Positions 7,300 through 37,198 of a DNA stretch of 39,064 nucleotides are shown in pieces. The stretch comes from a virus. Both the position numbers and the translations under genes were made by a program. The notes beneath the pieces are model-generated. The model had not been told where the DNA came from. It made no database searches and saw nothing but the letters and a program-made list of their open reading frames with translations. The first letter of the stretch is position 1; each line of letters starts with the position of its first letter. The stretch lies in the IMG/VR virus record IMGVR_UViG_3300029951_000066, one strand, 5' to 3'.

Positions 7300-7530
7300 A
7301 TGACCCCCGCTGAGATTGTCATCAAAGAATTCAATGGAATCGCGCCACTCGCTAGAGCTCTGGGTATAAGCTCAGCAACGGTTTGCCGGTGGCGCAGGCC
7401 TCGCCCGAAAGATCCGCAAGGAGGGCAAGTGCCGGGCAAGCACCATCGTCGCATCATCGAAATTGCGAAAGATCGCAACTTACCGATTGTCTTAAAAGAC
7501 CTCTGGTATGGCCGAGAAGAGCAGGAATAG
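7300..7530 (+). CDS. Cro-like HTH DNA-binding protein
   Basis: 76-aa ORF; motif GIAPLARALGISSATVCRWR resembles Cro/YdaS-type HTH; divergent from the repressor. Confidence 0.7.
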   Translation: MTPAEIVIKEFNGIAPLARALGISSATVCRWRRPRPKDPQGGQVPGKHHRRIIEIAKDRNLPIVLKDLWYGREEQE

Positions 7531-7536
7531 AGCATC

Positions 7537-14201: not shown

Positions 14202-15546
14202 GTTCAAGCTCACTACTAGGCAGGCCGAAGCCCAGGAGATGCTGAACGGGCCGGCGAAGCACGTGATGCTTGCGGGTGGTTCTAGGTCCGGAAAGACGCT
14301 GCTAATTATTAGGAAGCAGGTCCAACGTCGTCTTAAGGCGCCCGGCTCACGCGGCGCTGTGCTTCGTTTTCGCTTTGGTCACGTCAAGAACTCAATCATG
14401 CTGGACACCTTTCCTAAGGTGATGTCCATATGCTTTCCGGGCGTCCCATATGACGTGAATAAGTCGCTGGGCTATGCGACGTTTCCCGGTGGCAGTGAGC
14501 TGTGGTTCGGCGGCCTCGATGACAAGCAGCGCACTGAGAAGATTCTCGGCACAGAGTTTGCCGACATCTTTTTGAATGAGTGCTCTCAGATTCCATATTC
14601 GGGGCGTGAAATGGTCATGACGCGCTTGGCGCAGAAGGTACGCGACAATGCGACGGGCAACGATCTGATCATGAAGATGTATTACGACGAGAATCCGCCC
14701 GACAAAGGGCATTGGACCTATCGCCTGTTTAAGACCAAGGTGAGTCCCGAAACGCGTGCATCGTTGAGCGAGCCCGACAACTACGCCTTCATGCAGATCA
14801 ATCCTCGCGACAACCAAGAGAATCTGTCCGCCGACTACCTGAAGACGCTGTCCGAAATGTCGCCACGGATGCGCAAGCGCTTCCTCGAAGGAGAGTTCCG
14901 CGATGCCTCGCCTAATGCACTTTTCTCCGAAGAAGTGTTTGAACGTTGGCGCAACATTGATGACGAACTGCCGGACATGTTGCGTATCGTCGTGGCAGTC
15001 GATCCGTCAGGCGCCGATGATGATGACAACGTCGACAATGACGAAATCGGAATTGTCGTGGCTGGTCTCGGAATTGATGGGAATGGGTATGTATTGGAGG
15101 ATCTGACGTGCAAGGCTGGTCCTGCTGTGTGGGGCAAGGTTGCGACGGATGCCTATAAGCGTTGGGGCGGCGATCGCATCGTCGGTGAGGTGAATTATGG
15201 CGGCGCGATGGTCAAGTTCGTGGTACGCACGGCGCTGCCGAATGTACCGTTCAGGCCGGTCACCGCGACGCGTGGCAAGGTCATCCGAGCCGAGCCGATA
15301 TCAGCCCTGGTAGACGCTGGAAAGGTCCGCTTAGCTGGCGTGTTCCAAGAGATGGAAGACGAGTTATGCGCAATGACCACGCATGGCTATACCGGCGAGA
15401 ACAGCCCGAACCGTGCCGATGCGATGATATGGGCTATGACCGATCTATTCCCCGAGCTGGCCAAGCCGGAAGCAATTAAACCAGAGCCAAAGCCGCAGTT
15501 CATTCATCGGCGCCTTGGGTCAAACACAGGCTGGATGAGATCATGA
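14194..15546 (+). CDS. Terminase large subunit
   Basis: Walker A GGSRSGKT near the N-terminus; about 450 aa; between small terminase and portal. Confidence 0.85.
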   Translation: MAEFKLTTRQAEAQEMLNGPAKHVMLAGGSRSGKTLLIIRKQVQRRLKAPGSRGAVLRFRFGHVKNSIMLDTFPKVMSICFPGVPYDVNKSLGYATFPGGSELWFGGLDDKQRTEKILGTEFADIFLNECSQIPYSGREMVMTRLAQKVRDNATGNDLIMKMYYDENPPDKGHWTYRLFKTKVSPETRASLSEPDNYAFMQINPRDNQENLSADYLKTLSEMSPRMRKRFLEGEFRDASPNALFSEEVFERWRNIDDELPDMLRIVVAVDPSGADDDDNVDNDEIGIVVAGLGIDGNGYVLEDLTCKAGPAVWGKVATDAYKRWGGDRIVGEVNYGGAMVKFVVRTALPNVPFRPVTATRGKVIRAEPISALVDAGKVRLAGVFQEMEDELCAMTTHGYTGENSPNRADAMIWAMTDLFPELAKPEAIKPEPKPQFIHRRLGSNTGWMRS

Positions 15547-17723: not shown

Positions 17724-17983
17724 ACTTTACGCATACGGCAAAACCAGTAAAGGTACGAGCTATCGAGATAGTTAGCATTGACAATGAGGCGCACAACAAC
17801 GGTTCATACGACGTGGCTCTCCGAGATGGTACAAACTCGATAATCACCGAAGAAATGACGGCTCGTTACTTTCCGATCGAAGGTGACTATCTGGTAACTC
17901 AGGAGGATGGGTATGTCTATATCAATCCGAAAGAGGTTTTCGAGCGTAAATATTCGCCACTCTTCGTTGGAGAATGCAAATGA
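17720..17983 (+). CDS. Hypothetical protein (87 aa)
   Basis: ORF with ATGA overlap with the portal gene. Confidence 0.5.
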   Translation: MNFTHTAKPVKVRAIEIVSIDNEAHNNGSYDVALRDGTNSIITEEMTARYFPIEGDYLVTQEDGYVYINPKEVFERKYSPLFVGECK

Positions 17984-19014
17984 CCGTAACCGTACTCGAT
18001 AGTACCGATCTGACTGGAATCCTGGCCGATGCCGGAGTCGAGTTGGATCAGCCCCAAGGTGATCAGCAAGTGCAAGCGCAAAAGCCCGAGGGCAAGGATG
18101 CCAGCAAGCCGACCGGGCAGCAGCAGGATCAAGACCAAGACGACGACGAAGATGAAAAAGGTCTGAGTGCCGCCGATAAGGAGGTGCTCACGAAGCGCAT
18201 GCAAAGGGCCGTCGGCAAGCAGCATCGCAAGCGCATGGAAGCCGAAGAGTTCGCCGAGGCCGAGTACAATCAGCGCCATCTTGCAGAGCAGCGCGCCGAG
18301 AATCTTGAGAAACAATTGGCGGCGCTCAAGCAAGGGAGTACCCCGGAGACGGTGGAAAGCACTGCACCGGTACCCCCATTGCGCCAGAATTTCTCCAGCG
18401 AGAACGATTGGGTGGACGCAATGATTCAGTACGGCGTCGACAAACGCCTGGCTGAAAAGGCCGAAGAAGACCGTACTGCGGCGCAAAAGCGCGAGTATGA
18501 CGAGCGTATCGAGACCGCCAAAGGCCGCATTGTGAAGGCCATAGACCTGGTGCCAGACTTCGAAGAAACGATCATGGGCAACGACTCTACGCTGTCGCCA
18601 GCCATCGGTACTTACCTCGAAGAATCCGAGATGGTGGCCGAACTGACCTACTATCTGGCCAAGAACCCGGATGTATTAGTTTCGCTACTGAAATTGTCGC
18701 CACACACCCAATTAGTGAAAATCGGAAAAATTGAGAGTACACTCACGCCATTCGGTGGTAGCACTCAAACCGAGCACGACAGCAAGTCGAGCAAAGAAGC
18801 ATCCAACGGGAAGGTCGCCAAGACCGAGCCGAGCACCAATACAGGCATTGACCTGAGCAAGCCGCGCAGCAAGCCGGCCCCGGTGTTCGCGCCGTTAGAT
18901 GCAGGCGGTAACGCAGCAGCTTCGAAAGATTCGAAGGATATGAACATCCGGGAATCAATCGAGGACTTTGCCAAGCGCAACCGCGTCAATCTCGGTTCAC
19001 GTAAGCGGCATTAA
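17980..19014 (+). CDS. Putative scaffolding protein
   Basis: Acidic, Q/E/K-rich sequence with predicted coiled coil, between portal and capsid; GGAGA RBS. Confidence 0.6.
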   Translation: MTVTVLDSTDLTGILADAGVELDQPQGDQQVQAQKPEGKDASKPTGQQQDQDQDDDEDEKGLSAADKEVLTKRMQRAVGKQHRKRMEAEEFAEAEYNQRHLAEQRAENLEKQLAALKQGSTPETVESTAPVPPLRQNFSSENDWVDAMIQYGVDKRLAEKAEEDRTAAQKREYDERIETAKGRIVKAIDLVPDFEETIMGNDSTLSPAIGTYLEESEMVAELTYYLAKNPDVLVSLLKLSPHTQLVKIGKIESTLTPFGGSTQTEHDSKSSKEASNGKVAKTEPSTNTGIDLSKPRSKPAPVFAPLDAGGNAAASKDSKDMNIRESIEDFAKRNRVNLGSRKRH

Positions 19015-19088: not shown

Positions 19089-20474
19089 GTGTCAAATCAG
19101 CTACTCACGATCAGCCAGATCACCAACCGGGCACTCCCGGTTCTGGCAAACATGTGCGTTTTGACGGACAAATTCAACCGCCAGTACGACAAAGAATTCG
19201 GGCAAAAGGGCCGCAAGATCGGTGCGACGTGTAACGTCCGCCTGCCCCCGCGCTACCTCGGTACTTTCGGCCCTGCGCTCAATGTCGAGCCCAGCACGGA
19301 GAACTACGTACCGGTCAACATCCTGTATCAGTTCCACGTCGACATCCAGTTCAACACCATCAACATGCTGTTGGACATCGACGACTTCGAAGAGCGCTTC
19401 ATCCACCCGGCTTGCGTCGCAGTGGGTAACCGCATCGATTCGGACGGCGCCTACTTCGCTTTGCAGAACACCGCAAACCGTCAAGGCACGCCCGGTACGC
19501 CCCCCGGCAGCGGCCAGACCGCACAGGCGGCGCTCCAAGCATTCACCAACGCTCGCGCTATCCTCGTGTCGGAAGGCATGCCCAAGGGCTTGATCCCGAC
19601 CGCCGTGATGCACCCAATTGCCAATGCGTTCCTGACGCCGGCACTGTCGGGCCTCTTCAATCCGCAAGCGAACATCAGCGACTACTTCGAGACGGGCATG
19701 ATCGCCTTGAAGACCGCCGGCGCCGACTGGTTCGAAGATCCGAACATCGCCAACTATACGACTGGCACCTTGACTGGTACGCCGGTCTTGGCTGGCGTGA
19801 CTACGGCTTCTGCTGGTTCGGCGTTGCTCACTTCGGGCTGGGCGCAGACGGGTGTGTTGAACATCCAAGGCTTGACCAACACTGCAGCTCAGTGCACGGT
19901 CGGCGACACGATCCAGATCGCCGGTATCTTCCCGGTCAACCCGCAGAACCGCGGCAGCTACGGCACCACGCTCAAGCAGTTCGTGGTGCTTCCTCCGGGC
20001 GGCTACGCGCAACTCACTGGGTCGGCTGCGCCTGGCGGTCCCGGCTTCGCTCCTGCGACGCTCGCGGCTGGCACGTTCAACGCAACGACCGGCGTCTATA
20101 CGTCGAGCGGTACCGGCACGCTGTCGGTAACGATCGGCGAGTGCGTGATCACGGGCGGCCAGTTCCAGAACTGCCAAGCGCGTGCTGCATTCACTGGGAA
20201 CCCGGCTGTGACGATCAACGGCGGCGCAGCAGCGGCGACCTCCTCGACGGAAAATCTGTACTTCCATCGGGATGCCTTCGCACTGGCCTTCGTCGATTTG
20301 CCGCTGCCGCGCACCGCGGTCGAAGCAAGTCGAGCATTCGATGAAGATCTCGGTCTATCGATCCGGGTTGCAACGCAATATACGATCAATAACGACGCGG
20401 AACCGACACGTATGGATGTGGCATACGGATTTTCGAGCCTCTATCGTTCGCTGGCTTGCCGCGTGTCGGGCTAA
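19089..20474 (+). CDS. Major capsid protein (GTG start)
   Basis: 461-aa ORF after the scaffold; AGGAG RBS six nt upstream of the GTG; followed by a small gene and a terminator. Confidence 0.7.
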   Translation: MSNQLLTISQITNRALPVLANMCVLTDKFNRQYDKEFGQKGRKIGATCNVRLPPRYLGTFGPALNVEPSTENYVPVNILYQFHVDIQFNTINMLLDIDDFEERFIHPACVAVGNRIDSDGAYFALQNTANRQGTPGTPPGSGQTAQAALQAFTNARAILVSEGMPKGLIPTAVMHPIANAFLTPALSGLFNPQANISDYFETGMIALKTAGADWFEDPNIANYTTGTLTGTPVLAGVTTASAGSALLTSGWAQTGVLNIQGLTNTAAQCTVGDTIQIAGIFPVNPQNRGSYGTTLKQFVVLPPGGYAQLTGSAAPGGPGFAPATLAAGTFNATTGVYTSSGTGTLSVTIGECVITGGQFQNCQARAAFTGNPAVTINGGAAAATSSTENLYFHRDAFALAFVDLPLPRTAVEASRAFDEDLGLSIRVATQYTINNDAEPTRMDVAYGFSSLYRSLACRVSG

Positions 20475-21300: not shown

Positions 21301-22289
21301 CCATTGGAACCACTACGGCAGAGAGCCTCATCAAAGGGGCGCTGCGTCGCATCAATTCGTATCAGTCTGGCGAGCAGCTCGCGGAGTTCGACGCTGCGGA
21401 TTGTTTGGACACGCTGAACGATTTGCTCGACTCGCTCAGCCTGGATAAAGACCATATATTTGGCTCGCAGGAAAACATTCTTTCGTGGACGGCGCAGCAG
21501 CGCCTGTACAAGATAGGCAATCCGGTATGCACCCTGCTCGGACTGCAGCCTTTTACCGGGACTCTAACGGCAGGCTCACCGGTCATAGCCGGAATTACCA
21601 ACCTGCCGCCGCAGCTTGTCTCCGGACAGAATCCGGCTTTTCAGGTTGGCTCCGGCTCGATCCTGTCAGATGCGCAGGGACTGATTCCGGTCAATGCCAC
21701 AGTGCTGTCGGTAACGCCGACGACCATAACGATGTCTGCGCCGGCGATCGGAAACTCTGCCGGCCTGGATAGCATCACCTTCACAGTCCCCGGTGACTTG
21801 CCGATTCCGCGCCCGCTGCGCATCACGCACGGATTCACACGCTTCAATGCGCTCGATTTCACGCTTGACGTCTACGCTACGGAAACACAGTACACGCAAT
21901 TCCTATACAAGGCCCAGCCTGGGCCGTGGCCTACCGTGGCATGGTACAACAATACGTTCCCGTATGGCCTTCTGAATGTCTACCAGACCCCGGGTAACAG
22001 CACAGAGTGCCATCTGTTCACGGATACGATCCTACAAAATCTTACGTTGCAGCAAGTCCTTGTCATGCCTCAGGGCTACAGCCGAATGCTCAAGTGGCTG
22101 CTCGCGAAAGAAATCTGTGCGGAGTATGGCTTCCCGCTTACTCCGGCCATCACGTTGAATGCGAAGGAGGCGCGAGAGTTTGTAAAAGCGCTCAATGCGA
22201 AGCCGGCGAACGTGTCGAACTATGACCGTGAGCTGTCGCGAGGGAACAGGCCCGATGGCGGATGGGTGACTCATGGAGGTTACCGATAA
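21297..22289 (+). CDS. Putative head-tail adaptor or tail tube protein (330 aa)
   Basis: ORF with GGGAG RBS; position in structural module. Confidence 0.5.
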   Translation: MTIGTTTAESLIKGALRRINSYQSGEQLAEFDAADCLDTLNDLLDSLSLDKDHIFGSQENILSWTAQQRLYKIGNPVCTLLGLQPFTGTLTAGSPVIAGITNLPPQLVSGQNPAFQVGSGSILSDAQGLIPVNATVLSVTPTTITMSAPAIGNSAGLDSITFTVPGDLPIPRPLRITHGFTRFNALDFTLDVYATETQYTQFLYKAQPGPWPTVAWYNNTFPYGLLNVYQTPGNSTECHLFTDTILQNLTLQQVLVMPQGYSRMLKWLLAKEICAEYGFPLTPAITLNAKEAREFVKALNAKPANVSNYDRELSRGNRPDGGWVTHGGYR

Positions 22290-23929
22290 TGCCAGGCGGT
22301 AATAACGGACCTCTGAACCTGTTCGGTGATTTTGGCCTGGCTGGCGGTCAGGACAATGCGCCTAACCATCTGCAAGACGATCAGATGTGCATCAACATGT
22401 ACGCCGAGGTCGATCCGGGCAACTCCAAAGAGGTGCTTGGTCTGCTGGGTTGCCCAGGCCTAAACCAACTTGTCGCCGCACCTGTCGCCGGGGCCGGTGC
22501 GCCCGGATTCACTTCGACAATGACCGTGTGGCCCATGCCGTACTCCGGCCCTTCGCTGGAGGTGCGCGGGCTGTGGGAGCTTCCGGCCAATAACGACACG
22601 GTGCCGAACGGGACGGGTAGCACGGTCGATACGACAGCCCTAGCGGTCATTGGAAACACTTGCTATCTCGTCACTGCGACAATGACGGCGCCCACCGTGT
22701 TTCCCACCTTGTCTCTGACTTCGGTCGGTACGCTCCAAACCAGCACCGGCCCCGTGCACATCCGCGACAACAATACGGGCGGCGGCAACGCCGTGATCGT
22801 AGATGGCCCGAACGGTTATCTCTATGACATAGCGACGCAGGCCTTCACTCAGATCAACGATCCGAGTTTTCTAGGCTCAGATACGGTTGCCTATATCGAC
22901 GGTTGGTGGATCTTCAACAAGCCGGGCACACAGACGTTCTATTCGAACTCGCAGCCGTATAGCCTGACGTTCAATGCGCTGTTCTTCGCACTCAAGGATG
23001 CCGCGGCTGACAACCTCGTGGCCGTGATCGAGAACAAAGAGCTGCTGTGGTTGATAGGCGATAAGACGACAGAGATTTGGTACAACGCTGGCGGCGCGCC
23101 AGGTGGTGTAGGCGCGACCTTTGCCTTTCAGCGCATTGTCGGCACCCTTTTGCAGGTCGGTTGCAAGGCTAAACACTCGGTGGCTCGCTATGGGTCCCAG
23201 GGTCAGGAAGGGTTGATCTGGTTCGGGCGGTCGGAGCGCGGCGAGAATGTGATCGTGCGGACGCAAGGCTTTCTCGATCAGGTCATATCTACGCCTTCTT
23301 TCGGTGCGGAGGTGGCCACATACGCGACCACCGACGACGCAATCGGATACACCTATCAGGAAGACACGCATGAATTCTATGTGCTGATATTCCCGACCGC
23401 AGACACGTGCTGGTGCTATGACGGGCAATCAGGGCTGCTGCACAAGCGCCTTTCGTACGATCCGTATGCAAAGGAGTTCCATCGCCACCGTTCGAACGCA
23501 TTCATGAACTTCCAGGGTATGCGCGTCGTTGGCGACTATCAAAACGGGGCTCTGTACCAACTTACGAGAGCCGCCTATACCGATGCTGGCTGGCCACTGC
23601 TGGCAAAGCGACGCGCACCACATATTTGGGACGGCGGGCAACGCGGACGTGTTTTCATGCAAAGCCTACAACTCGATTTTAACGTTGGGGTCGGCAACCC
23701 AAGCGGCATGGGTACGAATCCGCGCTGCGGACTCTCGATCTCTCGCGATGGCGGCAGGACATTCGGCGATCGTATGTATGCGCCGATGGGTGCAATAGGT
23801 GAGTATCGCACACGCACGATGTGGCGCAAGCTAGGCTGGGGCCGGGATAATGTGGTCGATCTGGAAGTGATCGATCCAGTGAATCGCGACCTTGTTGGTG
23901 CAACGATGAAAGCATTCAGTTCAGCATGA
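22289..23929 (+). CDS. Putative tail structural protein (546 aa)
   Basis: ORF with GGAGG RBS at the internal ATG (MPGGNNGP); large beta-rich protein in the tail region. Confidence 0.55.
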   Translation: MPGGNNGPLNLFGDFGLAGGQDNAPNHLQDDQMCINMYAEVDPGNSKEVLGLLGCPGLNQLVAAPVAGAGAPGFTSTMTVWPMPYSGPSLEVRGLWELPANNDTVPNGTGSTVDTTALAVIGNTCYLVTATMTAPTVFPTLSLTSVGTLQTSTGPVHIRDNNTGGGNAVIVDGPNGYLYDIATQAFTQINDPSFLGSDTVAYIDGWWIFNKPGTQTFYSNSQPYSLTFNALFFALKDAAADNLVAVIENKELLWLIGDKTTEIWYNAGGAPGGVGATFAFQRIVGTLLQVGCKAKHSVARYGSQGQEGLIWFGRSERGENVIVRTQGFLDQVISTPSFGAEVATYATTDDAIGYTYQEDTHEFYVLIFPTADTCWCYDGQSGLLHKRLSYDPYAKEFHRHRSNAFMNFQGMRVVGDYQNGALYQLTRAAYTDAGWPLLAKRRAPHIWDGGQRGRVFMQSLQLDFNVGVGNPSGMGTNPRCGLSISRDGGRTFGDRMYAPMGAIGEYRTRTMWRKLGWGRDNVVDLEVIDPVNRDLVGATMKAFSSA

Positions 23930-24729
23930 GCGGTCTGCCTACTCTCATTCCTCCGCAAAGCGTCCCTATCTCGGTCGACGGCCAGGGTGCACCTGCATTT
24001 TTGAACATCAACTGGTATCTGTTCCTCTATAACCTAGGTGTACAGGTGCTGGGGACTGGATCCGGGGGCGGCGGCACTACACCTGTTTCTCCGTTCGACG
24101 CACTGGATGCGGCCAACTTATTCGCGCAAGGTGCGGATGTCCCGCAGGCATACCGAGGACTGGAAAATCTGGCCACGCTTATCGCTGGTGGCGCTCTTGT
24201 AGACCCCTCGCCACGTGCTCAGCCAGCACAGAATATCACTGTCGGTGCATCTCCGTTCACCTATACCGCGCTTCATGACGGAACCCTGTCCGTGAGCAAT
24301 GGCGTCGCGTCATCGATCGTAATTATCCGACAGGGAATTGTTGTTCCTACCGGAATAACGCTTTCCAGCGCAGGTGTTATCGGCGCTCTGACTGATGAGA
24401 AGGGGTCTGGTGGCCTGCCTGGTTTTGTGGCTGGCACCGATTTCACTCCCGGCACGACTACCGCTCTCACTCTTTCCCAGGCCTATGGCAGCGCATCCAA
24501 TCTCTGGATAGCCTTTGATGCGGCTGAGCAGGGGCCAAATACTTATTCATTGAGCGGCACCACGCTGACGTTTAACGCGCCGATTCCAGTCGGAACCGCG
24601 AATGTATTCGTGAAAGGTGCCGTTCCCTCGACGCTCAGTTCGCTTGGTGGGCTAATTCCATTGCGGCGCTTGGATCAAGTTCGTATCACGTATACCGGAT
24701 TGCCTCTCGTCGTATTTCTGCCGGACTAG
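23926..24729 (+). CDS. Tail fiber-like protein (267 aa) sharing an N-terminal anchor module with the tailspike
   Basis: Segment SNLWIAFDAAEQGPNTYSLSGTTLTFNAPIPVGTANVFVKGA is homologous to tailspike residues around 32150-32340. Confidence 0.6.
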   Translation: MSGLPTLIPPQSVPISVDGQGAPAFLNINWYLFLYNLGVQVLGTGSGGGGTTPVSPFDALDAANLFAQGADVPQAYRGLENLATLIAGGALVDPSPRAQPAQNITVGASPFTYTALHDGTLSVSNGVASSIVIIRQGIVVPTGITLSSAGVIGALTDEKGSGGLPGFVAGTDFTPGTTTALTLSQAYGSASNLWIAFDAAEQGPNTYSLSGTTLTFNAPIPVGTANVFVKGAVPSTLSSLGGLIPLRRLDQVRITYTGLPLVVFLPD

Positions 24730-25079: not shown

Positions 25080-25658
25080 ATGCGGAACTTTCAAAAAATA
25101 TTCGAAGGTGTTACGGTCGCGCCGCTTCTAAATGCGCTGTACCGAAAACCCGAACTATGGAAAGCCGATGACTTCCTTAGAAAGTTTCCACAAGGCCCGT
25201 TTGGCGAGACAGATACGATCTATCTTCGGTTCCAAGACAAATTGCAGGTTATTGATGATTCGGAAGTTAAGGCTTACGAAGAAAATCGCCTAGCAGGCCA
25301 TGACCTCCACGAATGTCCGTGGCGACCAGAAATGAATGAGTTGCCGGAGGCGCGGACACATATCAGCGCTCTAATGAGCGGTATGGGAGCAACTCGGCTA
25401 GGGCGCTGCATGATTAACCGCATCGCTCCAGGCGGGCATATTTTTCCTCATGCAGATACGAAATGGCACGCGGACTATTGGGACCGCTATCACCTAGTTC
25501 TGCAGTCGGAGCCGGGTAACGTTTTCCGATGTGGCAACGAGCAAGTGCACATGCGGCCTGGCGAACTATGGTGGTTCGAAAATGCTATTGAGCATGAGGT
25601 CACGAATAACAGCGCAAATGACCGCATTCACATGATCATCGATCTGAGGTTTTCGTGA
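25080..25658 (+). CDS. Aspartyl/asparaginyl beta-hydroxylase-family 2OG-Fe(II) oxygenase (cupin fold)
   Basis: C-terminal DRYHLVLQSEPGNVFRCGNEQVHMRPGELWWFENAIEHEVTNNSANDRIHMIIDL aligns by eye with the ASPH catalytic core (R.HL.L...G...RC.NE...G...F...EHEV...S..R...D); HxD-like PHAD upstream. Confidence 0.75.
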   Translation: MRNFQKIFEGVTVAPLLNALYRKPELWKADDFLRKFPQGPFGETDTIYLRFQDKLQVIDDSEVKAYEENRLAGHDLHECPWRPEMNELPEARTHISALMSGMGATRLGRCMINRIAPGGHIFPHADTKWHADYWDRYHLVLQSEPGNVFRCGNEQVHMRPGELWWFENAIEHEVTNNSANDRIHMIIDLRFS

Positions 25659-26916: not shown

Positions 26917-28413
26917 ATGCCCGACTTCGGCTCCCCAGTCGCTACCGGTATAACACCGCCGAACCCTAACCAGCTTACACAATCGTTGTCCGGGATCTTG
27001 AGTCTCAAGAATCAGCAGCAACAGTTGCAGGTCGGGCAAGCGCAAGCGCAGCAGGCTCAGCAGCAGATGCAGGAGCGGCAGCTATTGCAGCAAACGTTAG
27101 CAAGTGGCACGGCGCCAGATGGAACCTCAGTAAAAGACTCTAGCGGCCAGATTGATCCGGTTGCGATGTCGAAATTTGCCAATACATCGCTGCCTCTGAC
27201 GGGGCAAGGTGTGCTGCAGTCGATCATCCAAACGCAGGATAATCACATCAAACTGAATGACTCAATCCGCGGACTGAGCCAGAACGTGAACAATGATCTA
27301 TCCGGAATCATTCGCTCAGGCGTCGGCTCGCCCGATCCTGTGGCGACGGTTGGGCCGGCTCTGGATGCGTATGCGCAGCAGAATCCAACTGCTGCTAGTG
27401 CGGTCTCACGCGTCAAAGCACTATCGCAAAACCTCAATCCGCAGATGCCTATGGATCAGCGGAATATGGCAATCCAGCGTCTGGCTCAGCAATTCCAGCC
27501 TGCGGCTACTACGGTGGCGGAACAAACACCGGGCATACGTACTACAACCGGCCCAGGCGGCGGCGTCCAGGCAGTACAGACTAATCCGCTTTCCGCTGTC
27601 CCAATGGGCGCGGTCGGACCAGAAACGGCGCAGGGCATCCCGCTGGGTGAGCGTTCGCAAGTCGGCACCAATGCACTGACCGGTGGCCCCACTGTGGTCA
27701 ACAAGAATGGACAGGGGCAAGTTACCGGGATCACGAATGCGCCGACGCAGAACGTCTACGTCCCGCAACCCGGAGACGCACAAGCGATTCCCGGACTCTC
27801 TGCCGAGCGCGAGGCGGCGCGCAATGCATACACAAGCGCTCCTTCTGCTCACACCAACAATCAACTGGTCCTGCAGAATATCGATAACGTTGCGGCAACC
27901 GGCGCTGTCGGCCAGAAGGCACGCGCCGCCCTCAACGTCTTTGGGCTTGGCCAAGATACCGATGCGGCAACTGCATATGACTTGGTGGGTAAGGGCTTGG
28001 AGCGCTCCGCATTGCAGGCAGCACAGTCGATGGGGCCGAATACAAATGCTGGTCTAGACGCGCAGATCAAGGCTAACGGTTCGCTTGGCTATACGCCCGC
28101 TGCTATCAAAGAAGTGACGAAGCTGAACGATGCTCTTACGACTGGCGTACAGGCGTATCAGCCTGGCCTAGAACGCGCCATCGCTGCGAATCCGTCTGCT
28201 GGCGTTATCGCCAAGCGCCAGTTCGACCAGCAATGGGGCGCGAACTTCGACCCGAACATCTTCAAGTACTACAACGCGATCAAGGCTGGTGACACTGGCG
28301 AGCAGCAGGCTATCGTTAAGCAGTTGGGCGGCCTGAACTCAAAAGGCTACAACGACATGATGCAGAAGGCTCAGAACCTCCAGAAACTGTCTAATACTGG
28401 CGGTTCTCAGTAA
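26917..28413 (+). CDS. Gln-rich putative internal virion protein (498 aa)
   Basis: ORF with AAGGAGA RBS. Confidence 0.55.
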   Translation: MPDFGSPVATGITPPNPNQLTQSLSGILSLKNQQQQLQVGQAQAQQAQQQMQERQLLQQTLASGTAPDGTSVKDSSGQIDPVAMSKFANTSLPLTGQGVLQSIIQTQDNHIKLNDSIRGLSQNVNNDLSGIIRSGVGSPDPVATVGPALDAYAQQNPTAASAVSRVKALSQNLNPQMPMDQRNMAIQRLAQQFQPAATTVAEQTPGIRTTTGPGGGVQAVQTNPLSAVPMGAVGPETAQGIPLGERSQVGTNALTGGPTVVNKNGQGQVTGITNAPTQNVYVPQPGDAQAIPGLSAEREAARNAYTSAPSAHTNNQLVLQNIDNVAATGAVGQKARAALNVFGLGQDTDAATAYDLVGKGLERSALQAAQSMGPNTNAGLDAQIKANGSLGYTPAAIKEVTKLNDALTTGVQAYQPGLERAIAANPSAGVIAKRQFDQQWGANFDPNIFKYYNAIKAGDTGEQQAIVKQLGGLNSKGYNDMMQKAQNLQKLSNTGGSQ

Positions 28414-31046
28414 TGGACGATCTGCTCGCCACGATCCAAAGCGGAAACCCGAGCGCGTCGCCGGCCGGACCAGCGCCGGCTGCGTCGTCGGCTAGTGGCG
28501 CATTCAGTCCCTCCCAGAGCTATGGCACGCCAGCAAAGCTGCTCGACAATCTCGCGTGCGAGGAAAGCAGCGGCGACCAGTATGCTATTAACCCGAAAAC
28601 CCAGGCCATGGGTCCGTACCAATTCACCCCATCCACTGTAGCCATGCTGCAAAAGCAGGGCGTCAAGTTCAACCCATTCGACCCGCAAGAAGCGCGTAAT
28701 GCTGCCGACTACTATTTGCAGCAACTCAAAGGGCAGAACGGCGGCAGCTATGAAGGCGCTTTGAAGGCCTATGGCGGGTTCAAGACCGCCGACCCTACAC
28801 AGTATGTCGCGAAGGCGATGAGCGGTGTAACGGGCCAGCAAAGCGCGCCGGCACCGACGATTCCAGGGCAGTCGAACTCCGGTGCTCAGCCACAGAGCGA
28901 CTCGGGTCCAATGTCGGATCTATTCTCGACGCTCCAGCAGGGTCCATCGCAACCTTCGAAGGTTGCGCAACCTGCCGCGCCCGCACCTGATAAGCAGCCT
29001 CCGGCGCAAGGCGGATTTCTCGCTGGCCTAGGCCGGTCGACGGCTGGACTCGCAGATACAGTGCTAGGCGCTCCTGGCGCTGCTGCTGGCGCCGCTGACT
29101 ACGCTGTTCGTCGTGCATTTGGACAGAATCCCCAGCAAGCGCAGCAGAGCTCCGCAGGCGACTTCGGCGGATCAGTCCATCCTGTCGGCAACGCTTTCGG
29201 CGTGACCAACACGCCCGAGTACCAGAATGAAGCATCACAGCAAGCTACGCAGGCCGTAGGCAATGTGGTCGGGAAAGGCGTTAATGCAGTGGCCAGTGCA
29301 ACCGGTCTACCGCCGCAAGACGTTTCCAATATGGTGGGGTCTGCATCGATGTTGGTCCCCGGTGCGGCTCACCTCGCTGCTCCGCTAGCGAAAGGCGTGG
29401 CGAACGAAATCGGCTACGCCGCTTCTGCTGCTGGCCAAGGCATAAAGGCTGCGGCTGGCGCTGTCGGAGATGCAGCGTCTGATGCCGCGAAAGCAGTTGG
29501 GCAGACAGCGGGCGACCTCAAGAACGCGACCAGCGTGGCGACTGGGATCAAGACGCCTCAACAAGTCGCTACCGAGCAAGCTGCTGGGCAAGCATCTATA
29601 CCTGTTGTAGGCGCTGGTGCTGCAGGCCGTCCGAGTATGGGCGCGGCGGGAACCTCGTTCGCGCAGCAGGCTGCGGCCGAGGGCGTTCCCGATGCGCTTG
29701 TCGGGAAAATTGCCGCGGCGGAAAAGAGTGGCACCTTGAACCCCGTCTCAGCAGGCCGGCACATCGAGGCCGGTTCTTTGCCAGTTCCGATCGATCTGAC
29801 TGCCGGACAAGCGAGTAGCGACGTGCGTTTACTCTCCGACGAATTGAATGCTCGAGGAAAGAACCCTGAACTGGCGAACCGCTTCAATATGCAGAATGGC
29901 CAGATCGCTGACAACCTCAGTGCGATCCGGGATCAAGTCTCGCCAAACGTAAATGTTCCCTCTGGCGCGCCGACGGGACAAGCGCTTGTTGATGCATACA
30001 AGCAGATGGACGCGCCGATCACGCAGCAGATTTCTGATCTGTATTCCAAGGCACGCGGCGCCGACGGCACACCCGCTTTGGTCAACGCTGCGCCGCAGAT
30101 GAAAGATTTCGCTTCGCAGATCGGTCCCACACGGTTCAATGCGCTGCCATCTAACGTTCAACAGATCTTCCGCGACGCAAGCGCCAATCAGGTATCTCTC
30201 CCGGCTGGCTTCGAGCAGAACGGTTCGTCAGTGCGTCCGATGAATGTCGGCGACTTGATGGATATCGATAAAACGCTCTCGGGAGCCATGCGCGGCGCCA
30301 CGGATGGTTCAGTTCGGCACGACATCGGCGCACTGCGCGATAGCGTCGTGAATTCTCAGCTTGACCCTTCGGCGGCGGGATCGGACGCCTTCGCAGCGTA
30401 CAAGACCGCGCAGGCGAGTGCGCGAGCGCGTTTCCAAGCGATGGACTCGGACCCAGCCTACAAAGCCGCAGTGAACGATATAGCGCCCGCGGGAGAGCCT
30501 TCTGCGCTGGCCGATGACTTCGTGCGCAAGTACGTGGCTGGCGGGAAGACTTCAAACGTACAGAACATGATGCAGAACCTGTCGAATGATCCGGTCAATT
30601 CGGAGCTCGTCGCTTCCGGGTTGATGGACCATATCAGGAGCCAGGCCGGTGTCGACCTACGCACTGGGTCGGGGAATATCAGTCAAGCGGGCCTGAATAA
30701 ATCCCTTCAAAACTTGGGCGATAAGACGCGCATTGTGCTCGGTCCAGAGGCATCGCAGACGGTCGAGAAACTCGGCAATGTTGCGCGCTACACGCAGGAG
30801 CAACCGCGAGGCAGCTATGTCAATAACAGCAACACATTTGTTGCGTCGGTCGCAAACGCTGCCAAGTCATCGGCAGAGGGTGCGGCTAACGTTGCGGCTC
30901 ATGGGATTCCCGTTGGAACATGGACCCGGCAGGCACTCGCAAGGCGTGCTGATGCAAAATCCGTGGCCAGCTCGCTTGAGCCGGGTGCCGGACTTAAGTC
31001 GGTTCCGCTCAATCAATTACTCAATAAAACAAAGGGGAATCCTTAA
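28413..31046 (+). CDS. Internal virion protein with N-terminal lytic transglycosylase (SLT) domain
   Basis: Motif CEESSGDQYAINPKTQAMGPYQFTPST (E-S catalytic, AxGxxQF); 877 aa; TAATG overlap with the upstream gene. Confidence 0.75.
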   Translation: MDDLLATIQSGNPSASPAGPAPAASSASGAFSPSQSYGTPAKLLDNLACEESSGDQYAINPKTQAMGPYQFTPSTVAMLQKQGVKFNPFDPQEARNAADYYLQQLKGQNGGSYEGALKAYGGFKTADPTQYVAKAMSGVTGQQSAPAPTIPGQSNSGAQPQSDSGPMSDLFSTLQQGPSQPSKVAQPAAPAPDKQPPAQGGFLAGLGRSTAGLADTVLGAPGAAAGAADYAVRRAFGQNPQQAQQSSAGDFGGSVHPVGNAFGVTNTPEYQNEASQQATQAVGNVVGKGVNAVASATGLPPQDVSNMVGSASMLVPGAAHLAAPLAKGVANEIGYAASAAGQGIKAAAGAVGDAASDAAKAVGQTAGDLKNATSVATGIKTPQQVATEQAAGQASIPVVGAGAAGRPSMGAAGTSFAQQAAAEGVPDALVGKIAAAEKSGTLNPVSAGRHIEAGSLPVPIDLTAGQASSDVRLLSDELNARGKNPELANRFNMQNGQIADNLSAIRDQVSPNVNVPSGAPTGQALVDAYKQMDAPITQQISDLYSKARGADGTPALVNAAPQMKDFASQIGPTRFNALPSNVQQIFRDASANQVSLPAGFEQNGSSVRPMNVGDLMDIDKTLSGAMRGATDGSVRHDIGALRDSVVNSQLDPSAAGSDAFAAYKTAQASARARFQAMDSDPAYKAAVNDIAPAGEPSALADDFVRKYVAGGKTSNVQNMMQNLSNDPVNSELVASGLMDHIRSQAGVDLRTGSGNISQAGLNKSLQNLGDKTRIVLGPEASQTVEKLGNVARYTQEQPRGSYVNNSNTFVASVANAAKSSAEGAANVAAHGIPVGTWTRQALARRADAKSVASSLEPGAGLKSVPLNQLLNKTKGNP

Positions 31047-31054
31047 TGGTTTCC

Positions 31055-31567
31055 CTATGCCTTTGTAAAGCGGCCCGTTCTTTCGTCTCTTCCGCCGCGC
31101 TTATTAGCGAGTTGCTCTTTTCTGGTCGCCCAACGGAAATTATTCGGCGCGTATGGCCCATCATTATCGACGCGATCAATTTCGAGATTCCCGGGCCTTT
31201 CTCCGACGTCAGCGAGAAAATATGGGAAATTCAGCCATCTATCACAGACGACTATTCCCCTGCCACCATAGCAATGGAAGGCTGGATTTTCCGGATTGTT
31301 GCAGCGATCTATCATTGCTCGCCATACCCAATAAAGAGGCGTATTAGATTTTCCGCTCCGAATATACTTCCTTCCTGTCGGAGTAACACATCCGCAAGAT
31401 ATGAGCACGCTTTGCCGGAAACCACTGATGATTTTTTCGTTTCCACAAGAGCATTTACAGAGCCACTGCGTCGACTTCCCATCCCCCGATCCCCTAGGAA
31501 TTCTTCGAATAGCGGTCAGTTCGCCATGAACTTCGCCCGGTTGGATCCGTGTATTTTTATTCGGCAT
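31055..31567 (-). CDS. HNH-type homing endonuclease-like protein, antisense within the virion operon
   Basis: AGGAG RBS; Cys-rich CKCSCGN...CGC plus motif WVWRAMIDRCNNPENPAFHCYGGRGIVVCDRW common in phage HNH/AP2-type proteins. Confidence 0.6.
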   Translation of the reverse strand: MPNKNTRIQPGEVHGELTAIRRIPRGSGDGKSTQWLCKCSCGNEKIISGFRQSVLISCGCVTPTGRKYIRSGKSNTPLYWVWRAMIDRCNNPENPAFHCYGGRGIVVCDRWLNFPYFLADVGERPGNLEIDRVDNDGPYAPNNFRWATRKEQLANKRGGRDERTGRFTKA

Positions 31568-31607
31568 CTACCGCTCCTAACCATAAATACTGTTTCTGGA
31601 TAATATC

Positions 31608-33881
31608 ATGGGAACGTCTGTCGTTCAGGCACCTGACGCAATATTGCAATTTTTCAATAATGCGGGGCTACCAAATGTCGGTGGAAGTCTGCTAACCCAG
31701 GTTGGCGGCGTCAACTATCCAACATTCGAGGATGCTGCTGGTAGCACTCCGCTGCCTAATCCGATCCCTTTGAACTCCCGTGGCGAGATTTCCAATTCGT
31801 CCGGTGTATCGAGTCAGCTTTTCCTTTTCGATGCGGTCGTTTATACCTTCACGCTATTCGATGCACACGGAAATCAAATTTGGGTTGCCGAAAATGTCAC
31901 AAGCGGCGGGGCAGAAACAGGCAGCATGACCGACGAAGGCCCATTCCTGGCCGGACCAACATTTACCGGTTCCATCACTGGAACTGCATTGACTATCAGC
32001 GGAGTGACCGGATCGGTTGCCATTGGTCAGACGTTGTTCGGCGCTGGTGTAACCGCAGGAACGACGATCACGGGGGGGGCCGGTACCTCATGGACCGTCA
32101 GCACACCGCAAACCGTCGCCTCTGAGCCAATGTCCTCGGCAGGCACAGATCAGTTTGCGCCTGGATTCAGCACGGTCCTGACCCTGGTCGGTTTCTATGG
32201 CAGCAAGTCGAATCTATGGATCCAGTTCGATGCTGCCTCGCAGGGAGAGGATACGTTTGGCCTCAATAATTTCACGTTGACCTTCAATGCTCCTATCCCC
32301 ATTGGTGTTCAAGCTATCTACATAAAAGGAGGCACTACAGTCAGTATTGGTGCACCCGGAACAGGGACAGTTACAGATTCCACCGTAGCCGCCAATGCAG
32401 GGATCGAGGCATCCAAGCTTTCCTATACTGCGCCCTACACTGGCGCCGTCGCTGAAACTGTCCAGGCACGGCTTTCAAATTCGGTCTCGGTAAAGGATTT
32501 CGGGGCAACCGGCAATGGTACAACTGACGATACGACAGCATTCCAGAGCGCCATCAACTCGGGCGCCACTCGGATCAGCGTGCCGGCTGGCACCTATCTG
32601 ATTACCAAGACGCTCAACTTCACGAATCGTGGGAGCGTGCCTTTAGTCATAAGTGGCGACGGGGGATACTTAGAACAAAATACGGGGACAACGCTTCTAT
32701 TCCAGACGGGCACATGGATGGCCGATATGACTGGCTGTCAATTCCTACATCTAGAGCATATGCGCTGGTTTTCCAATGGCGCCGCGACTGGTTTTTCGAC
32801 GCTAGGCTGTCTGTACGCGAGGTCAACTGTAGTCGGCTTCGCCATATTCAACTCGATGTTCAAGATGATCATTGAGTTGCCGTCAAGCTCAGGAAGTAGC
32901 GCGGGGTCTATCGCGCTAGCAGACAACTGCATGGAAAATTGTCTGTTCGATATGTGCTGGTTTCTTTCCGACACTCCTTATGCTTCCACATTGGCGAATG
33001 AGTTAAGTTTCGTGTCAACGTACGCGACAGTCGCTAACACTACGTTCAGCAATACCGACAAAACGTTTAGGCAATGTATTTTCTTGGCTAGGAACGGAAC
33101 GGGCTGCTTCTTACAGGGAGTGGCCGATACCACATTTGATCAGTGCAATTGGTCTCTAAATGGCGCTCTAGGCGGCGCCATAGCCGCAGCCATGACGATT
33201 TTGTCATCGGCGGATGGTTACCAGAACTGCTCAAACATACGATTCACTGGGGATTTTGAATCATTCCCAGCAATCGCAGCACTTACCGGAAATACAGAAG
33301 GCCTCGTATTCGACTGCACCTCGGCGGGCCTGACAGGTTCGGCATATATCCTAAACACATCGGGCACCACTCACGATGGCATGAAGGTAAAGGTTAATAC
33401 GCTGTCCGGAGCGCAATTGAAGATGATCCTCACTAGCTCCGGATCATCGATAGTGAACAATGCCGAAGTCCATATGAATAATGGGCAGACACTACTAGAT
33501 GGGGCACTCACGATCAATGGCGGGACGATTTACGGCGGAGCAAATGATCTTTCCAATTCTGGCGTTCTGTCGATCGCTCCAGCATCAAGTTTTATCGCAA
33601 CTTACGAGAACTCAAAGCTGACTGGGAGCGTGTCTTGGGCGCCAGGTTCTGTGCCCGGCAATAGTACCGTTCTGTTTCCCGGAACAGTTACAGTGCCTGG
33701 CGCGGTAGGAGGGTCTTCCGTAGCAGTAAAGGTGCCATATGCGATACCATTTTGTATCGCTAGTGGCTTCGTAACGACCAGCAATCAGGTTGAGCTTATG
33801 CTTTCCAATGTCAACGGCGCTGCATCCGCAGCTTTCGGTACTGGCACTTGGATAGTGGAAGTGAAGAAGGTCTACGCTTGA
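31608..33881 (+). CDS. Tailspike with pectate-lyase-fold (right-handed beta-helix) depolymerase-like domain
   Basis: Motif VKDFGATGNGTTDDTTAFQSAINSGATRISVPAGTYLI typical of Pectate_lyase_3/GH28-type tailspikes; N-terminal module shared with the 23926 protein. Confidence 0.8.
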   Translation: MGTSVVQAPDAILQFFNNAGLPNVGGSLLTQVGGVNYPTFEDAAGSTPLPNPIPLNSRGEISNSSGVSSQLFLFDAVVYTFTLFDAHGNQIWVAENVTSGGAETGSMTDEGPFLAGPTFTGSITGTALTISGVTGSVAIGQTLFGAGVTAGTTITGGAGTSWTVSTPQTVASEPMSSAGTDQFAPGFSTVLTLVGFYGSKSNLWIQFDAASQGEDTFGLNNFTLTFNAPIPIGVQAIYIKGGTTVSIGAPGTGTVTDSTVAANAGIEASKLSYTAPYTGAVAETVQARLSNSVSVKDFGATGNGTTDDTTAFQSAINSGATRISVPAGTYLITKTLNFTNRGSVPLVISGDGGYLEQNTGTTLLFQTGTWMADMTGCQFLHLEHMRWFSNGAATGFSTLGCLYARSTVVGFAIFNSMFKMIIELPSSSGSSAGSIALADNCMENCLFDMCWFLSDTPYASTLANELSFVSTYATVANTTFSNTDKTFRQCIFLARNGTGCFLQGVADTTFDQCNWSLNGALGGAIAAAMTILSSADGYQNCSNIRFTGDFESFPAIAALTGNTEGLVFDCTSAGLTGSAYILNTSGTTHDGMKVKVNTLSGAQLKMILTSSGSSIVNNAEVHMNNGQTLLDGALTINGGTIYGGANDLSNSGVLSIAPASSFIATYENSKLTGSVSWAPGSVPGNSTVLFPGTVTVPGAVGGSSVAVKVPYAIPFCIASGFVTTSNQVELMLSNVNGAASAAFGTGTWIVEVKKVYA

Positions 33882-33883
33882 GG

Positions 33884-34495
33884 ATGAAAATGAAACGACT
33901 ATTTATCTCACTGTTCAGTGCAGCATCGATCTGTGCACATGCTGCCACAAATCTCCCGATCCAACTGATAAGCCCGGTTGGTTCGACAAGTGGACAGGCA
34001 ATAGTTTCAACCGGAGCTTCGAGCGCGCCGGCTTGGACTGCGGTAGTTGGCGCATCATCTCCGACAATCACGACTCCGAATATTATCGGTGTAACTAATA
34101 CATCAAATGCGGCAGCTGGAAGCGTAGGAGAGGTCATAACAGCACAGAGTGGGGCAGTTTCTCTCTCGACATCGACATCGACAAATATCATAAGCATTCC
34201 GCTAACTCCTGGCGATTGGGATGTTCGCGGGAATGTTGAGTATGATCCGGCTGGCACGACGATTTTTGTGCAGTCTGTATCTGGAATTTCTGTTACTTCC
34301 GCCACTCTTCCAAGTTCACCATTGAAGGCCGTGAGTAATTACCCAAGCATAGCTGGCAATCAGCAGTCTTCTTTTTTGCCAATTACCCGCGTCAACATTT
34401 CTTCTCCAACTACAGTTTTTGTAGTTGGATTTGCAGGGTTTACGGTTAGCACTTTGACTGCAACAGCATACATTGCTGCTCGACGTATTCGCTAA
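33884..34495 (+). CDS. Secreted Ser/Thr-rich protein with N-terminal signal peptide
   Basis: N-terminus MKMKRLFISLFSAASICAHAATN (K-rich n-region, hydrophobic core, AHA cleavage-like site); lower GC than the genome average. Confidence 0.55.
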   Translation: MKMKRLFISLFSAASICAHAATNLPIQLISPVGSTSGQAIVSTGASSAPAWTAVVGASSPTITTPNIIGVTNTSNAAAGSVGEVITAQSGAVSLSTSTSTNIISIPLTPGDWDVRGNVEYDPAGTTIFVQSVSGISVTSATLPSSPLKAVSNYPSIAGNQQSSFLPITRVNISSPTTVFVVGFAGFTVSTLTATAYIAARRIR

Positions 34496-34504
34496 GGAAG
34501 CAAA

Positions 34505-36152: not shown

Positions 36153-36626
36153 ATGGGTGCCGTAACCTTCCAATTCGTCGAGGGGAGGGGCCTCAGCTCC
36201 TCTCTAATTGAATGGTTTGATCACGACCGTTACTCTCATGTCGATCTCGTCTTGCGAGACGGCACGTTGCTAGGCGCCCGCGACGATATGATTCTAGGCA
36301 TACCGGCAGGTGTGCAGATTCGCCCGTCCAGTTATGTGGACGGGGAATCAGTTCTCAGGGTGTCGGTGCCGTGCACAGACGAGCAGGAAGCGGCGTTCTA
36401 CGCCTATGCTCAAGAACAGGTGGGGAAGCCATATGACCAAGAAGCCATTGCCGCCTTTGTGGTGGGTCGGAATTGGCGCGATCCTAACGACTGGTACTGC
36501 TCTGAGCTGGGCGCTGCTTGCACTGAGAAAAGCGGGATTGTTCCGCCGTTGATTGCGCCTTGCAACAAGATAGCGCCTGGAGATTTGGCGCTGCTTTTGT
36601 CTGCTCTGGTTGAGATTCAGCCGTGA
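36153..36626 (+). CDS. Putative permuted papain-fold cysteine peptidase (YiiX/C92-like), possible second cell-wall hydrolase
   Basis: His-then-Cys order (YSHVDLVL ... WYCSELGAAC) reminiscent of the permuted NlpC/P60-like amidase family. Confidence 0.45.
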   Translation: MGAVTFQFVEGRGLSSSLIEWFDHDRYSHVDLVLRDGTLLGARDDMILGIPAGVQIRPSSYVDGESVLRVSVPCTDEQEAAFYAYAQEQVGKPYDQEAIAAFVVGRNWRDPNDWYCSELGAACTEKSGIVPPLIAPCNKIAPGDLALLLSALVEIQP

Positions 36627-37108
36627 TTAGCGAACTCTCCGTGAAGTCTTTCCCTGGCCTCATGAAGAGCGTTGCCAGCCTCTTCCTTCGATATGAAATA
36701 TCCCACGCATTTTTGCTTCCCATTGGATTGAAGTCGAGCTACCCATCTCGCACTGTATTTATGCCAAAACACTCCTTTTATTCCAGAAGTGTTATCAGTT
36801 CTAATCGACGCGTTTTGGGCGTTCTGCGAGTGTGTAGCATGCCTCAGATTAAAGAAGCTATCGTCCGATCTGCAGGTATTGCGATGGTCTATTTCATGTT
36901 CAGGGAAGACGCCGGTCATATATAACCAGGCGAGCCTGTTGGCCTTGTAGTTTTTGTTATCGACCATGATCTTTCTGTAGCCATCCGGCTCTATTGATCC
37001 TGCTAGATCGCCAGGCTTCAGACGATTAGAGGAAGGCTTGACCCAAGTGAATATCCCTGTTTCGGGATCATAGTGAAGGACTTCTTTTAGGCGTTCTTGA
37101 GTAAGCAT
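36617..37108 (-). CDS. HNH homing endonuclease with AP2-type DNA-binding domain (paralogue of the 10658 gene)
   Basis: Motifs ERLKEVLHYDPETGIFTW, EIDHRNTCRSDDSFFNLRHATHSQN, SGIKGVFWHK...VGYFISKEEAGNA; GGAG RBS at ATG 37108. Confidence 0.8.
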   Translation of the reverse strand: MLTQERLKEVLHYDPETGIFTWVKPSSNRLKPGDLAGSIEPDGYRKIMVDNKNYKANRLAWLYMTGVFPEHEIDHRNTCRSDDSFFNLRHATHSQNAQNASIRTDNTSGIKGVFWHKYSARWVARLQSNGKQKCVGYFISKEEAGNALHEARERLHGEFANHG

Positions 37109-37198
37109 TTGATCTCCGGTCAAGGAAGTCTGTGGTGTGCGGCAAGCGTTGACTAGACGCTGTTCGGATGCCTCCTAGCCGCACTAAAATCATACCAT

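Follow-up and report, generated by a model that had tools for sequence, protein, structure and literature searches.

In a viral DNA sequence of 39,064 nucleotides (IMG/VR record IMGVR_UViG_3300029951_000066; this whole stretch is referred to below as the window), we found that the gene for a 170-amino-acid (aa) protein on the minus strand at 31055-31567 is probably a free-standing gene of the homing-endonuclease type, inserted antisense where the stop codon of a virion gene with an SLT transglycosylase domain meets the start codon of the tailspike gene. Comparing sequences, we put the probability of this reading, with the cleavage and homing that it implies, at roughly 60%. The kind of gene is already known: it is an ordinary optional passenger of phages, encoding an HNH variant in which the usual catalytic histidine is missing. 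Its carrier is a temperate-looking podovirus from soil or peat metagenomes, whose nearest relative among cultured genomes is a Paraburkholderia prophage. A sequence-only reading of the same DNA had already proposed an antisense, free-standing HNH-type endonuclease gene at this position, and it was right in kind, in that we also arrive at an optional phage endonuclease gene at a defined site for which we infer cleavage and homing.

Evidence for insertion at a defined site came from relatives of the phage, which were found by searching IMG/VR, JGI metagenomes and the genome of Paraburkholderia sp. HD33-4 with the SLT protein. Six of these phages or prophages do without the insert (L008, L009, L010, L011/L032, L021 and L029), and in them the stop codon of the SLT gene overlaps or abuts the tailspike ATG (...AAGGGGAAYCCNTAATG... 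or ...TAAATG..., that is, TAATG or TAAATG). When the junctions of L008, L010, L011 and L021 were aligned with those of the window and of L028, a 1.3-kb Logan contig, the insert emerged as a mobile unit of 561 bp (31047..31607) in which the gene is flanked 3′ by 8 bp and 5′ by 40 bp, and these 561 extra bases sit exactly at the junction of the SLT stop and the tailspike start. L028 has a 67%-identical copy of the gene, antisense as here and at this very junction, yet the empty-site relatives resemble the window more closely in their flanks than L028 does: over the last 114 aa of the SLT protein and the first 104 aa of the tailspike, identity to the window is 64% and 67% for L028, as against 86% and 76% for L009/L010, 79% and 71% for L008, and likewise 79% and 71% for L029. 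Such patchiness relative to relatedness, combined with so exact an empty site, is what one would expect of a homing gene. The sequence-only reading had looked to insert-free phages to define the site and had counted universal presence with conserved synteny against itself; the comparison gave a clean empty site in six relatives, none of which has the gene. No further carriers of the insert were found; IMG/VR gave only an identical contig and distant family members, and no contig is recorded for P0003.

One of the empty-site relatives, L029, is the Paraburkholderia sp. HD33-4 prophage (NZ_JAJEJS010000002.1, 1413446-1422765), in which the SLT protein is 71% identical to that of the window (locally up to 86%); this relative suggests a host in the Burkholderiaceae for the window's phage. 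Some contigs with the identical endonuclease gene are 50-200 kb long and could be integrated copies or concatemer assemblies.

Under the homing reading, the enzyme would act in a cell shared with a related phage or prophage bearing the empty junction (...AAGGGGAAYCCNTAATGG...), which it would cut there or nearby. Repair by recombination with the gene-carrying genome would then copy the 561-bp unit, along with some flanking sequence, into the empty site, while the carrier's own genome would be protected by the insert that splits its site.

The gene itself is intact and equipped for translation. The 170-aa open reading frame (ORF) predicted on the minus strand was confirmed, with a TAG stop codon at 31055-31057, and reading the minus-strand sequence 5′ of its start (TTAGGAGCGGTAGATG) directly located the ribosome-binding site of its own that had been claimed for it, a Shine-Dalgarno AGGAG at 31574-31578 (minus strand) with a spacer of 6 nt to the ATG at 31567; the 67%-identical gene of L028 has retained this AGGAG as well. 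The gene was also said to stand alone among about 23 kb of plus-strand genes, and it is indeed the sole antisense gene in the approximately 22.5 kb between the start of the large terminase gene (14122) and position 36626, as judged from the ORF map and from independent gene calls on metagenome contigs with the same sequence. The ORF is intergenic, lying between one stop codon and one start codon and outside any intron or intein, and neither an intron nor another RNA family of Rfam was found at the locus at E≤1.

The protein belongs to a very large family whose members are labelled as HNH endonucleases in PHROG and go without a model in the curated domain collections. It matched PHROG 374 ("HNH endonuclease") over residues 10-159 with an E-value of 1.6e-50, as well as four further PHROGs with the same label, whereas no Pfam or NCBIfam model, including HNH and HNH_2-5, matched at E≤1, and no precomputed Pfam domain was present among its best 120 homologues. 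A word-indexed search returned 1386 homologues at E≤1e-5, and an exhaustive search returned 194,006 clusters at 50% identity at E≤1e-3 (139,410 at E≤1e-10). The family's spread across unrelated phages bore out the idea of a free-standing endonuclease-type gene: homologues were found in 1172 phage records with hosts ranging from Staphylococcus to Pseudomonas to Mycobacterium, all below 60% identity, and the closest match outside the gene's own lineage has 67% identity, followed by matches of 50% or less. Proteins of PHROG 374/3377/2081/953, for example in Acinetobacter phage YMC-13-01-C62 (gp40), Salmonella phage FSL SP-030 and Pseudomonas phage 201phi2-1, are 40-46% identical over 84-92% of the 170-aa protein and share its Cys cluster, YGGRGI box and DRxDN...Y.P.N.RWAT box, although many members of the PHROG 374 family have extra N-terminal repeats or a C-terminal AP2 or helix-turn-helix domain that the 170-aa protein lacks. 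When 28000-34500 was compared by megablast with 50,697 phage records, nothing matched, indicating that no close relative of this phage has been sequenced there.

A 213-aa family member was also observed in Caulobacter phage RW (L039, MK929790.1; 3462-4103, plus strand), where it lies within the DNA polymerase coding sequence (1535-4417) but in a frame other than that of the polymerase, in an intein-like insertion (CIAKF...IVHN/C) of this family-A polymerase gene; the record annotates one long polymerase coding sequence only. This copy is a circumstantial sign that the family travels with mobile elements.

A family alignment (A1, 42 sequences) and a structure model were used to characterise the protein. 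The Cys cluster C39, C41, C58 and C60 is invariant in A1 and C37 nearly so, and further invariant features of the alignment are an R88-C89 pair, a Y-G-G-R-G-I box and a C-terminal box, D-R-(I/V)-D-N-D-G-x-Y-x-P-x-N-x-R-W-A-T-x-x-x-Q-x-x-N. The motifs that the sequence-only reading had singled out, CKCSCGN...SCGC and YGGRGIVVCDRW, are present and sit on family-invariant columns, and every family-invariant residue is kept in the 170-aa protein (C39, C41, G42, C58, G59, C60, R88, G101, R103, G104, I105, W111, F117, D120, P125, R132, N135, Y139, N143, W146, T148 and N155). AlphaFold2 gave a model with a mean predicted local distance difference test score of 86.9 (at least 95 over residues 81-150), in which a small N-terminal beta domain (strands 17-23, 34-39 and 44-48) is followed by a helical middle and a terminal strand-strand-helix (129-131, 145-147 and 149-155). 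In this model, the fold of the C-terminal core (aa 128-156, LEIDRVDNDGPYAPNNFRWATRKEQLANK; 31100..31186, minus strand), which contains D131, R132, Y139, N143, Q152 and N155, has beta-beta-alpha-metal (HNH) topology; a nuclease fold was therefore what the model gave, rather than assignment to a non-nuclease family. PDB sequence searches with the protein and the family profile returned only chance matches (beta-lactamase, E 1.2; mS23, E 0.096) and Foldseek found no PDB match below E 0.4.

An HNH_3 alignment (A2) built from the window's second endonuclease gene was compared profile to profile with the family, which aligned D131/R132/N143/Q152/N155 with D74/H75/N87/N96/N99. Because R132 aligns with H75, the general-base His, after which HNH enzymes are named, is an Arg in this family: this position, invariant in A1, is Arg in 366 of 369 family domains (99%) and never His. 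N143 aligns with the structural Asn of HNH enzymes and D131 with the metal-ligand Asp, while the helix-ligand position is taken by Gln152 with the invariant Asn155 one turn on. Across approximately 370 domain copies from 270 family proteins, conservation was 99.7% for N143, 95% for N155, 94% for Y139 (Phe in 5%), 92% for Q152 and 89% for Asp or Glu at position 131. The homing endonucleases of the I-HmuI/HNH_3-AP2 type (PF13392) are likewise free-standing or intron-borne phage genes that combine nuclease and DNA-binding modules, and they have the motif G..P..ID[H/R]...N.R.AT..[N/Q]..N in common with this family; they differ in having a catalytic D-H pair and an N-terminal nuclease, as compared to the D-R pair and C-terminal nuclease of the 170-aa protein.

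The same residues have a counterpart in the restriction enzyme R.PacI (PDB 3ldy/3m7k), which is assigned to group 20 of the His-Me finger nucleases by Jablonska et al. 2017 (PMC5714182). PacI is a His-Me finger without the His, in which a Tyr of the omega loop serves as base or nucleophile and a single metal is held by Asp and Asn (PMC5714182, PMC4081073, PMC3384342). Using a PacI sequence that was checked against the PDB copy (identical save two residues near the C terminus), hhalign placed LEIDRVDNDGPYAPNNFRWAT of the family profile on PacI 89-109 (LGVDRSDSFEGYSPQNARLAC) over 21 columns with 43% identity, and the motif D-R-x-D-x4-Y-x-P-x-N keeps Asp, Arg, Asp, Tyr, Pro and Asn at identical intervals in both. 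By analogy with PacI, D131 with Q152 or N155 would hold one divalent metal, N143 would brace the loop, R132 would occupy the usual His position and Y139 in the omega loop would stand in for the missing general-base His. The protein is thus best described as a PacI-like, His-less HNH for which catalysis is predicted. The claim of a typical HNH homing endonuclease held for the fold and the family but not for the details, given the lack of a Pfam HNH match, the Arg in place of the catalytic His and the PacI-type motif. The two proteins also differ in setting, as PacI is a restriction enzyme that acts as a homodimer on an 8-bp palindrome and the gene here is phage-borne and insertion-polymorphic with a presumed repeatable DNA-binding module; the published PacI group 20 is small and mostly from giant viruses, in contrast to this huge phage-borne family (approximately 1.9e5 clusters).

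Like PacI, the 170-aa protein has an N-terminal Cys-rich module, although the Cys pattern here (CxCxC...CxC) is unlike the two Cys4 zinc sites of PacI, one of which clamps the beta-beta-alpha core. This module spans aa 12-60 (31388..31534, minus strand) and forms a small beta-barrel with the Cys cluster C37-x-C39-x-C41...C58-x-C60. It is doubled in the family members P0004, P0009 and P0030, and in the exhaustive search one family protein had up to 11 copies. Phage homing endonucleases are usually built as repeated zinc-containing modules joined to a nuclease (PMC10448857), and since the module recurs like beads on a string in longer homologues, we presume that it is a zinc-stabilised DNA-binding module.

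Several observations nevertheless weigh against an active homing endonuclease. The canonical catalytic His is absent from the 170-aa protein, so its predicted activity hangs on the analogy with PacI, and that analogy is incomplete: the second Cys4 site of PacI (C63, C66, C109 and C112) has no counterpart here, and its metal-ligand helix Asn (N113) corresponds to Gln152, with the invariant Asn lying three residues on. A nearly invariant His of the family, His71, is Ser in this protein and its two closest relatives. In the literature, we found no biochemically characterised member of the family, and the one "PacI-like" phage HNH examined in vivo (Skunavirus H1-93), whose link to this family is not established, had no significant activity in an exclusion assay (PMC12724721). 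No sigma-70-like promoter for the antisense gene was found within 600 bp, in a scan that may not suit the host. Between the window and L028 copies, the proportions of differing sites were 0.24 for nonsynonymous (pN) and 0.78 for synonymous positions (pS), and with synonymous sites saturated it can be stated only that pN is far below pS; by this comparison, the gene is under purifying selection, a point in favour of the homing reading. Its nonsynonymous divergence (dN 0.29) is about that of the flanks (0.26 and 0.28) for these two copies, and such flank-like divergence fits old vertical inheritance and loss as well as it fits homing with co-conversion.

Some of these points would suit a domesticated or catalytically dead DNA binder of the His-Me finger fold, comparable to the His-less SMAD MH1 domain and regulating, for example, expression of the late genes or the tailspike, or resembling a repressor in its action. 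His-less groups of His-Me fingers without nuclease activity exist (PMC5714182), the whole family lacks the catalytic His and this clade has lost His71 besides, purifying selection has preserved an intact gene that has diverged as far as its flanks, and some homologues are annotated as "DNA-binding domain protein" or "AP2". We consider this explanation unlikely, as a pure binder would have no reason to keep the PacI catalytic residues (Asp, loop Tyr and Asn), which are conserved family-wide at 89-99.7%. In addition, the gene is dispensable, being absent from six relatives, and the family has the scattered, insertion-like distribution of homing genes, with one copy in an intein-like element.

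The long retention of the gene, its purifying selection and its flank-like divergence also bear on a second possibility, that the protein is an active nuclease kept for the benefit of the phage, its main use being to fend off competing relatives or satellites through marker or superinfection exclusion. All of the evidence for a nuclease applies here as it does to homing; phage HNH enzymes of the homing type can exclude related phages when expressed alone (PMC12724721), and domesticated relatives of homing endonucleases are active in phage-satellite conflict (PMC10448857). Sequence data cannot part this explanation from homing, as the same cut would give both outcomes, and the protein matched none of the PADLOC defence models; we judge a role mainly in exclusion to be improbable. 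Among known systems, the free-standing homing genes of T4 (seg, mob) and ICP1 (PMC2988022, PMC10448857) are also intergenic beside essential late genes, vary in presence between close relatives and have modular zinc-containing DNA-binding domains, as is presumed here. Those genes belong to other nuclease families (GIY-YIG, T5orf172, HNH_3) and are usually co-oriented with their neighbours, in contrast to the gene in the window, which is antisense inside a translationally coupled pair.

Homing genes often decay once fixed (PMC10448857), and the loss of His71 and the missing promoter could be taken as signs of a decaying remnant with no present function. This is very unlikely, as the ORF is full-length with a strong ribosome-binding site, all family-invariant residues are kept, pN is far below pS against the 67%-identical copy, and the identical protein is present in 87 collection blocks. 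Least probable of all, and rejected on position and dispensability, is a terminase-associated HNH for DNA packaging (cos cleavage) like HK97 gp74 or GVE2-like enzymes, even though many phage annotations of "HNH endonuclease" are of this kind (PMC3592412, PMC12724721). The large terminase gene (14122-15546, plus strand) ends 15.5 kb upstream of the endonuclease gene, which is antisense and between tail genes; the closest relatives have the same packaging genes but no endonuclease gene, and neither the His nor the CxxC pairs that mark this class are present in the 170-aa protein.

One further feature lies on the sense strand across the insert. The ancestral junction survives at the left edge of the insert (31032..31048, plus strand), with a Shine-Dalgarno-like AAGGGG at 31032-37, the SLT stop TAA at 31044-46 and an orphan ATG at 31046-48; this ATG overlaps the TAA, has an 8-nt spacer from AAGGGG and corresponds to the tailspike start of insert-free relatives. 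As read from its upstream sequence, the present tailspike ATG (31608) has no good Shine-Dalgarno of its own. From the orphan start, a sense-strand "shadow" ORF of 185 codons, uncertain in status, runs codon-aligned antisense to the endonuclease gene (31046..31603, plus strand) and ends at a stop codon (31601-31603) 4 nt before the present tailspike ATG. L028 has an equivalent ORF of 171 codons (359-874 of its reverse complement), open from the same orphan ATG across the whole antisense gene, and the only indel between that ATG and the endonuclease stop codon in L028 relative to the window is 6 nt long and falls in the part that does not encode the endonuclease, which keeps the frame of the shadow ORF.

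The shadow frame can be open only if the endonuclease gene has no TTA, CTA or TCA codons, and both the window and the L028 genes have none. Synonymous resampling gave probabilities of 0.074 and 0.059 for zero such codons with phage codon usage, and 0.023 and 0.015 when the low-GC right arm supplied the codon usage. In structural genes, 10.4% of 170-codon windows had an aligned antisense frame that is open, as compared to 0 of 634 in right-arm genes, and 2-11 of these codons were counted in four further members of the family, two of which have higher guanine-cytosine (GC) content. No bridging sense ORF was present in the ORF map at the second antisense endonuclease gene. We tentatively suggest, while leaning against it, that this relay ORF may let the coupled gene pair tolerate the antisense insert; its support comes from two lineages only and was noticed post hoc. 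Ribosomes would initiate at the ancestral start of the tailspike, which is intact (AAGGGG, 8-nt spacer, TAATG), read 185 codons across the whole insert and stop 4 nt before the present tailspike ATG, so that translational coupling would be passed on and the late transcript shielded from Rho-dependent polarity.

Two compositional features that had been linked to the insertion proved less distinctive. The lower GC content is real, at 0.493 for the endonuclease gene (4th percentile among the 513-bp windows of the sequence) versus 0.599 for the upstream SLT gene and 0.560 for the whole window, but it is not peculiar to this gene: the tailspike (0.521) and the next gene downstream of it (0.475) are also low, which makes low GC a trait of the whole right arm. 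Similarly, an imperfect palindrome does exist at the converging gene ends (31029-31067), where ACAAAGG at 31029-31035 pairs with CCTTTGT at 31061-67 around inner GGGAA/TTCCC, but it folds no differently from shuffled sequence (z = -0.64 on the minus strand and -1.19 on the plus strand) and was not reported by a repeat finder. Its left arm consists of conserved C-terminal codons and the Shine-Dalgarno of the ancestral gene junction. The folding scores and a terminator scan ruled it out as a terminator or recombination signal.

The suggestion that the gene drives exchange of the adjacent host-range module did not hold up. The right neighbour is a 757-aa tailspike with a pectate-lyase-like beta-helix (31608..33881, plus strand; PF12708 and tail-spike PHROGs), and its N-terminal 100-340 residues are common to the relatives, extending to as many as 518 residues at 50% identity in L009. 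The C-terminal parts are unrelated among relatives and the downstream genes mostly so, with or without the endonuclease gene, placing the mosaic breakpoint inside the tailspike gene approximately 0.3-1 kb downstream of the insert. That distance is within the reach of a co-conversion tract, yet there is no evidence linking tailspike exchange to the endonuclease, as relatives without the gene swap their C-terminal parts too.

A second antisense endonuclease gene lies at 36617-37123 (minus strand); it encodes a canonical HNH_3 (D74, H75, N87, N96) with a weak C-terminal AP2 match and converges on the plus-strand gene at 36153-36626 with a 10-nt overlap at its end. The two antisense endonuclease genes flank the block from tailspike to lysis (31.6-36.6 kb, GC 0.53). 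They show no similarity to each other by direct BLASTP, and no homologue of the second was found within 6 kb downstream of the SLT gene in the relatives. An island of homing-endonuclease genes bracketing the tailspike-lysis block was considered and is unsupported, since the left mosaic breakpoint falls inside the tailspike and not at the endonuclease gene.

For the window as a whole, the genes of the left arm (113-7568, minus strand), among them one for a DUF3799 PDDEXK-like protein at 4020-4931, are transcribed leftward, and those of the rest (7537-36626, plus strand), with a DUF1376 protein at 7537-8352, are transcribed rightward. Such a divergent arrangement is temperate-like and in keeping with the prophage relative. 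The large terminase gene is followed on the plus strand by genes for the portal (15543-17723), scaffold (17974-19014), major head protein (19089-20474) and head-closure/stabilisation protein (22262-23929). The left neighbour of the insert, at 28413-31046 on the plus strand, encodes an internal virion protein of 877 aa whose N-terminal part is the SLT transglycosylase domain (PF01464; phrog_669). Within a 267-aa protein of the virion module (ORF 23926-24729), a 64-residue segment (24430-24618) is 61% identical to tailspike aa 178-241 (32139-32330), and the pairing recurs in the relatives L008-L010, L020 and L021, so the segment may be a shared attachment or adaptor domain. A 192-aa aspartyl/asparaginyl beta-hydroxylase (PF05118, cupin) is encoded at 25080-25658 (plus strand) amid the virion morphogenesis genes, an unusual place for such a protein.

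For the phage itself, the finding is minor, an optional passenger marking one mobile junction beside a host-range gene, and the parts that merit follow-up are the His-less HNH family without a curated model and the relay-ORF idea. The clean pair of empty and occupied junctions is a ready substrate for cleavage testing and would also suit asking whether a relay ORF on the sense strand makes an antisense insertion less costly to a late operon. On the side of the family, a huge group of phage "HNH endonucleases" has no catalytic His and no Pfam or NCBIfam model and shares the Asp-Arg...Tyr...Asn site of PacI. If these proteins are active, annotation pipelines should class the family separately, and Tyr-dependent His-Me chemistry would be common among phage mobile nucleases rather than the curiosity of one restriction enzyme.

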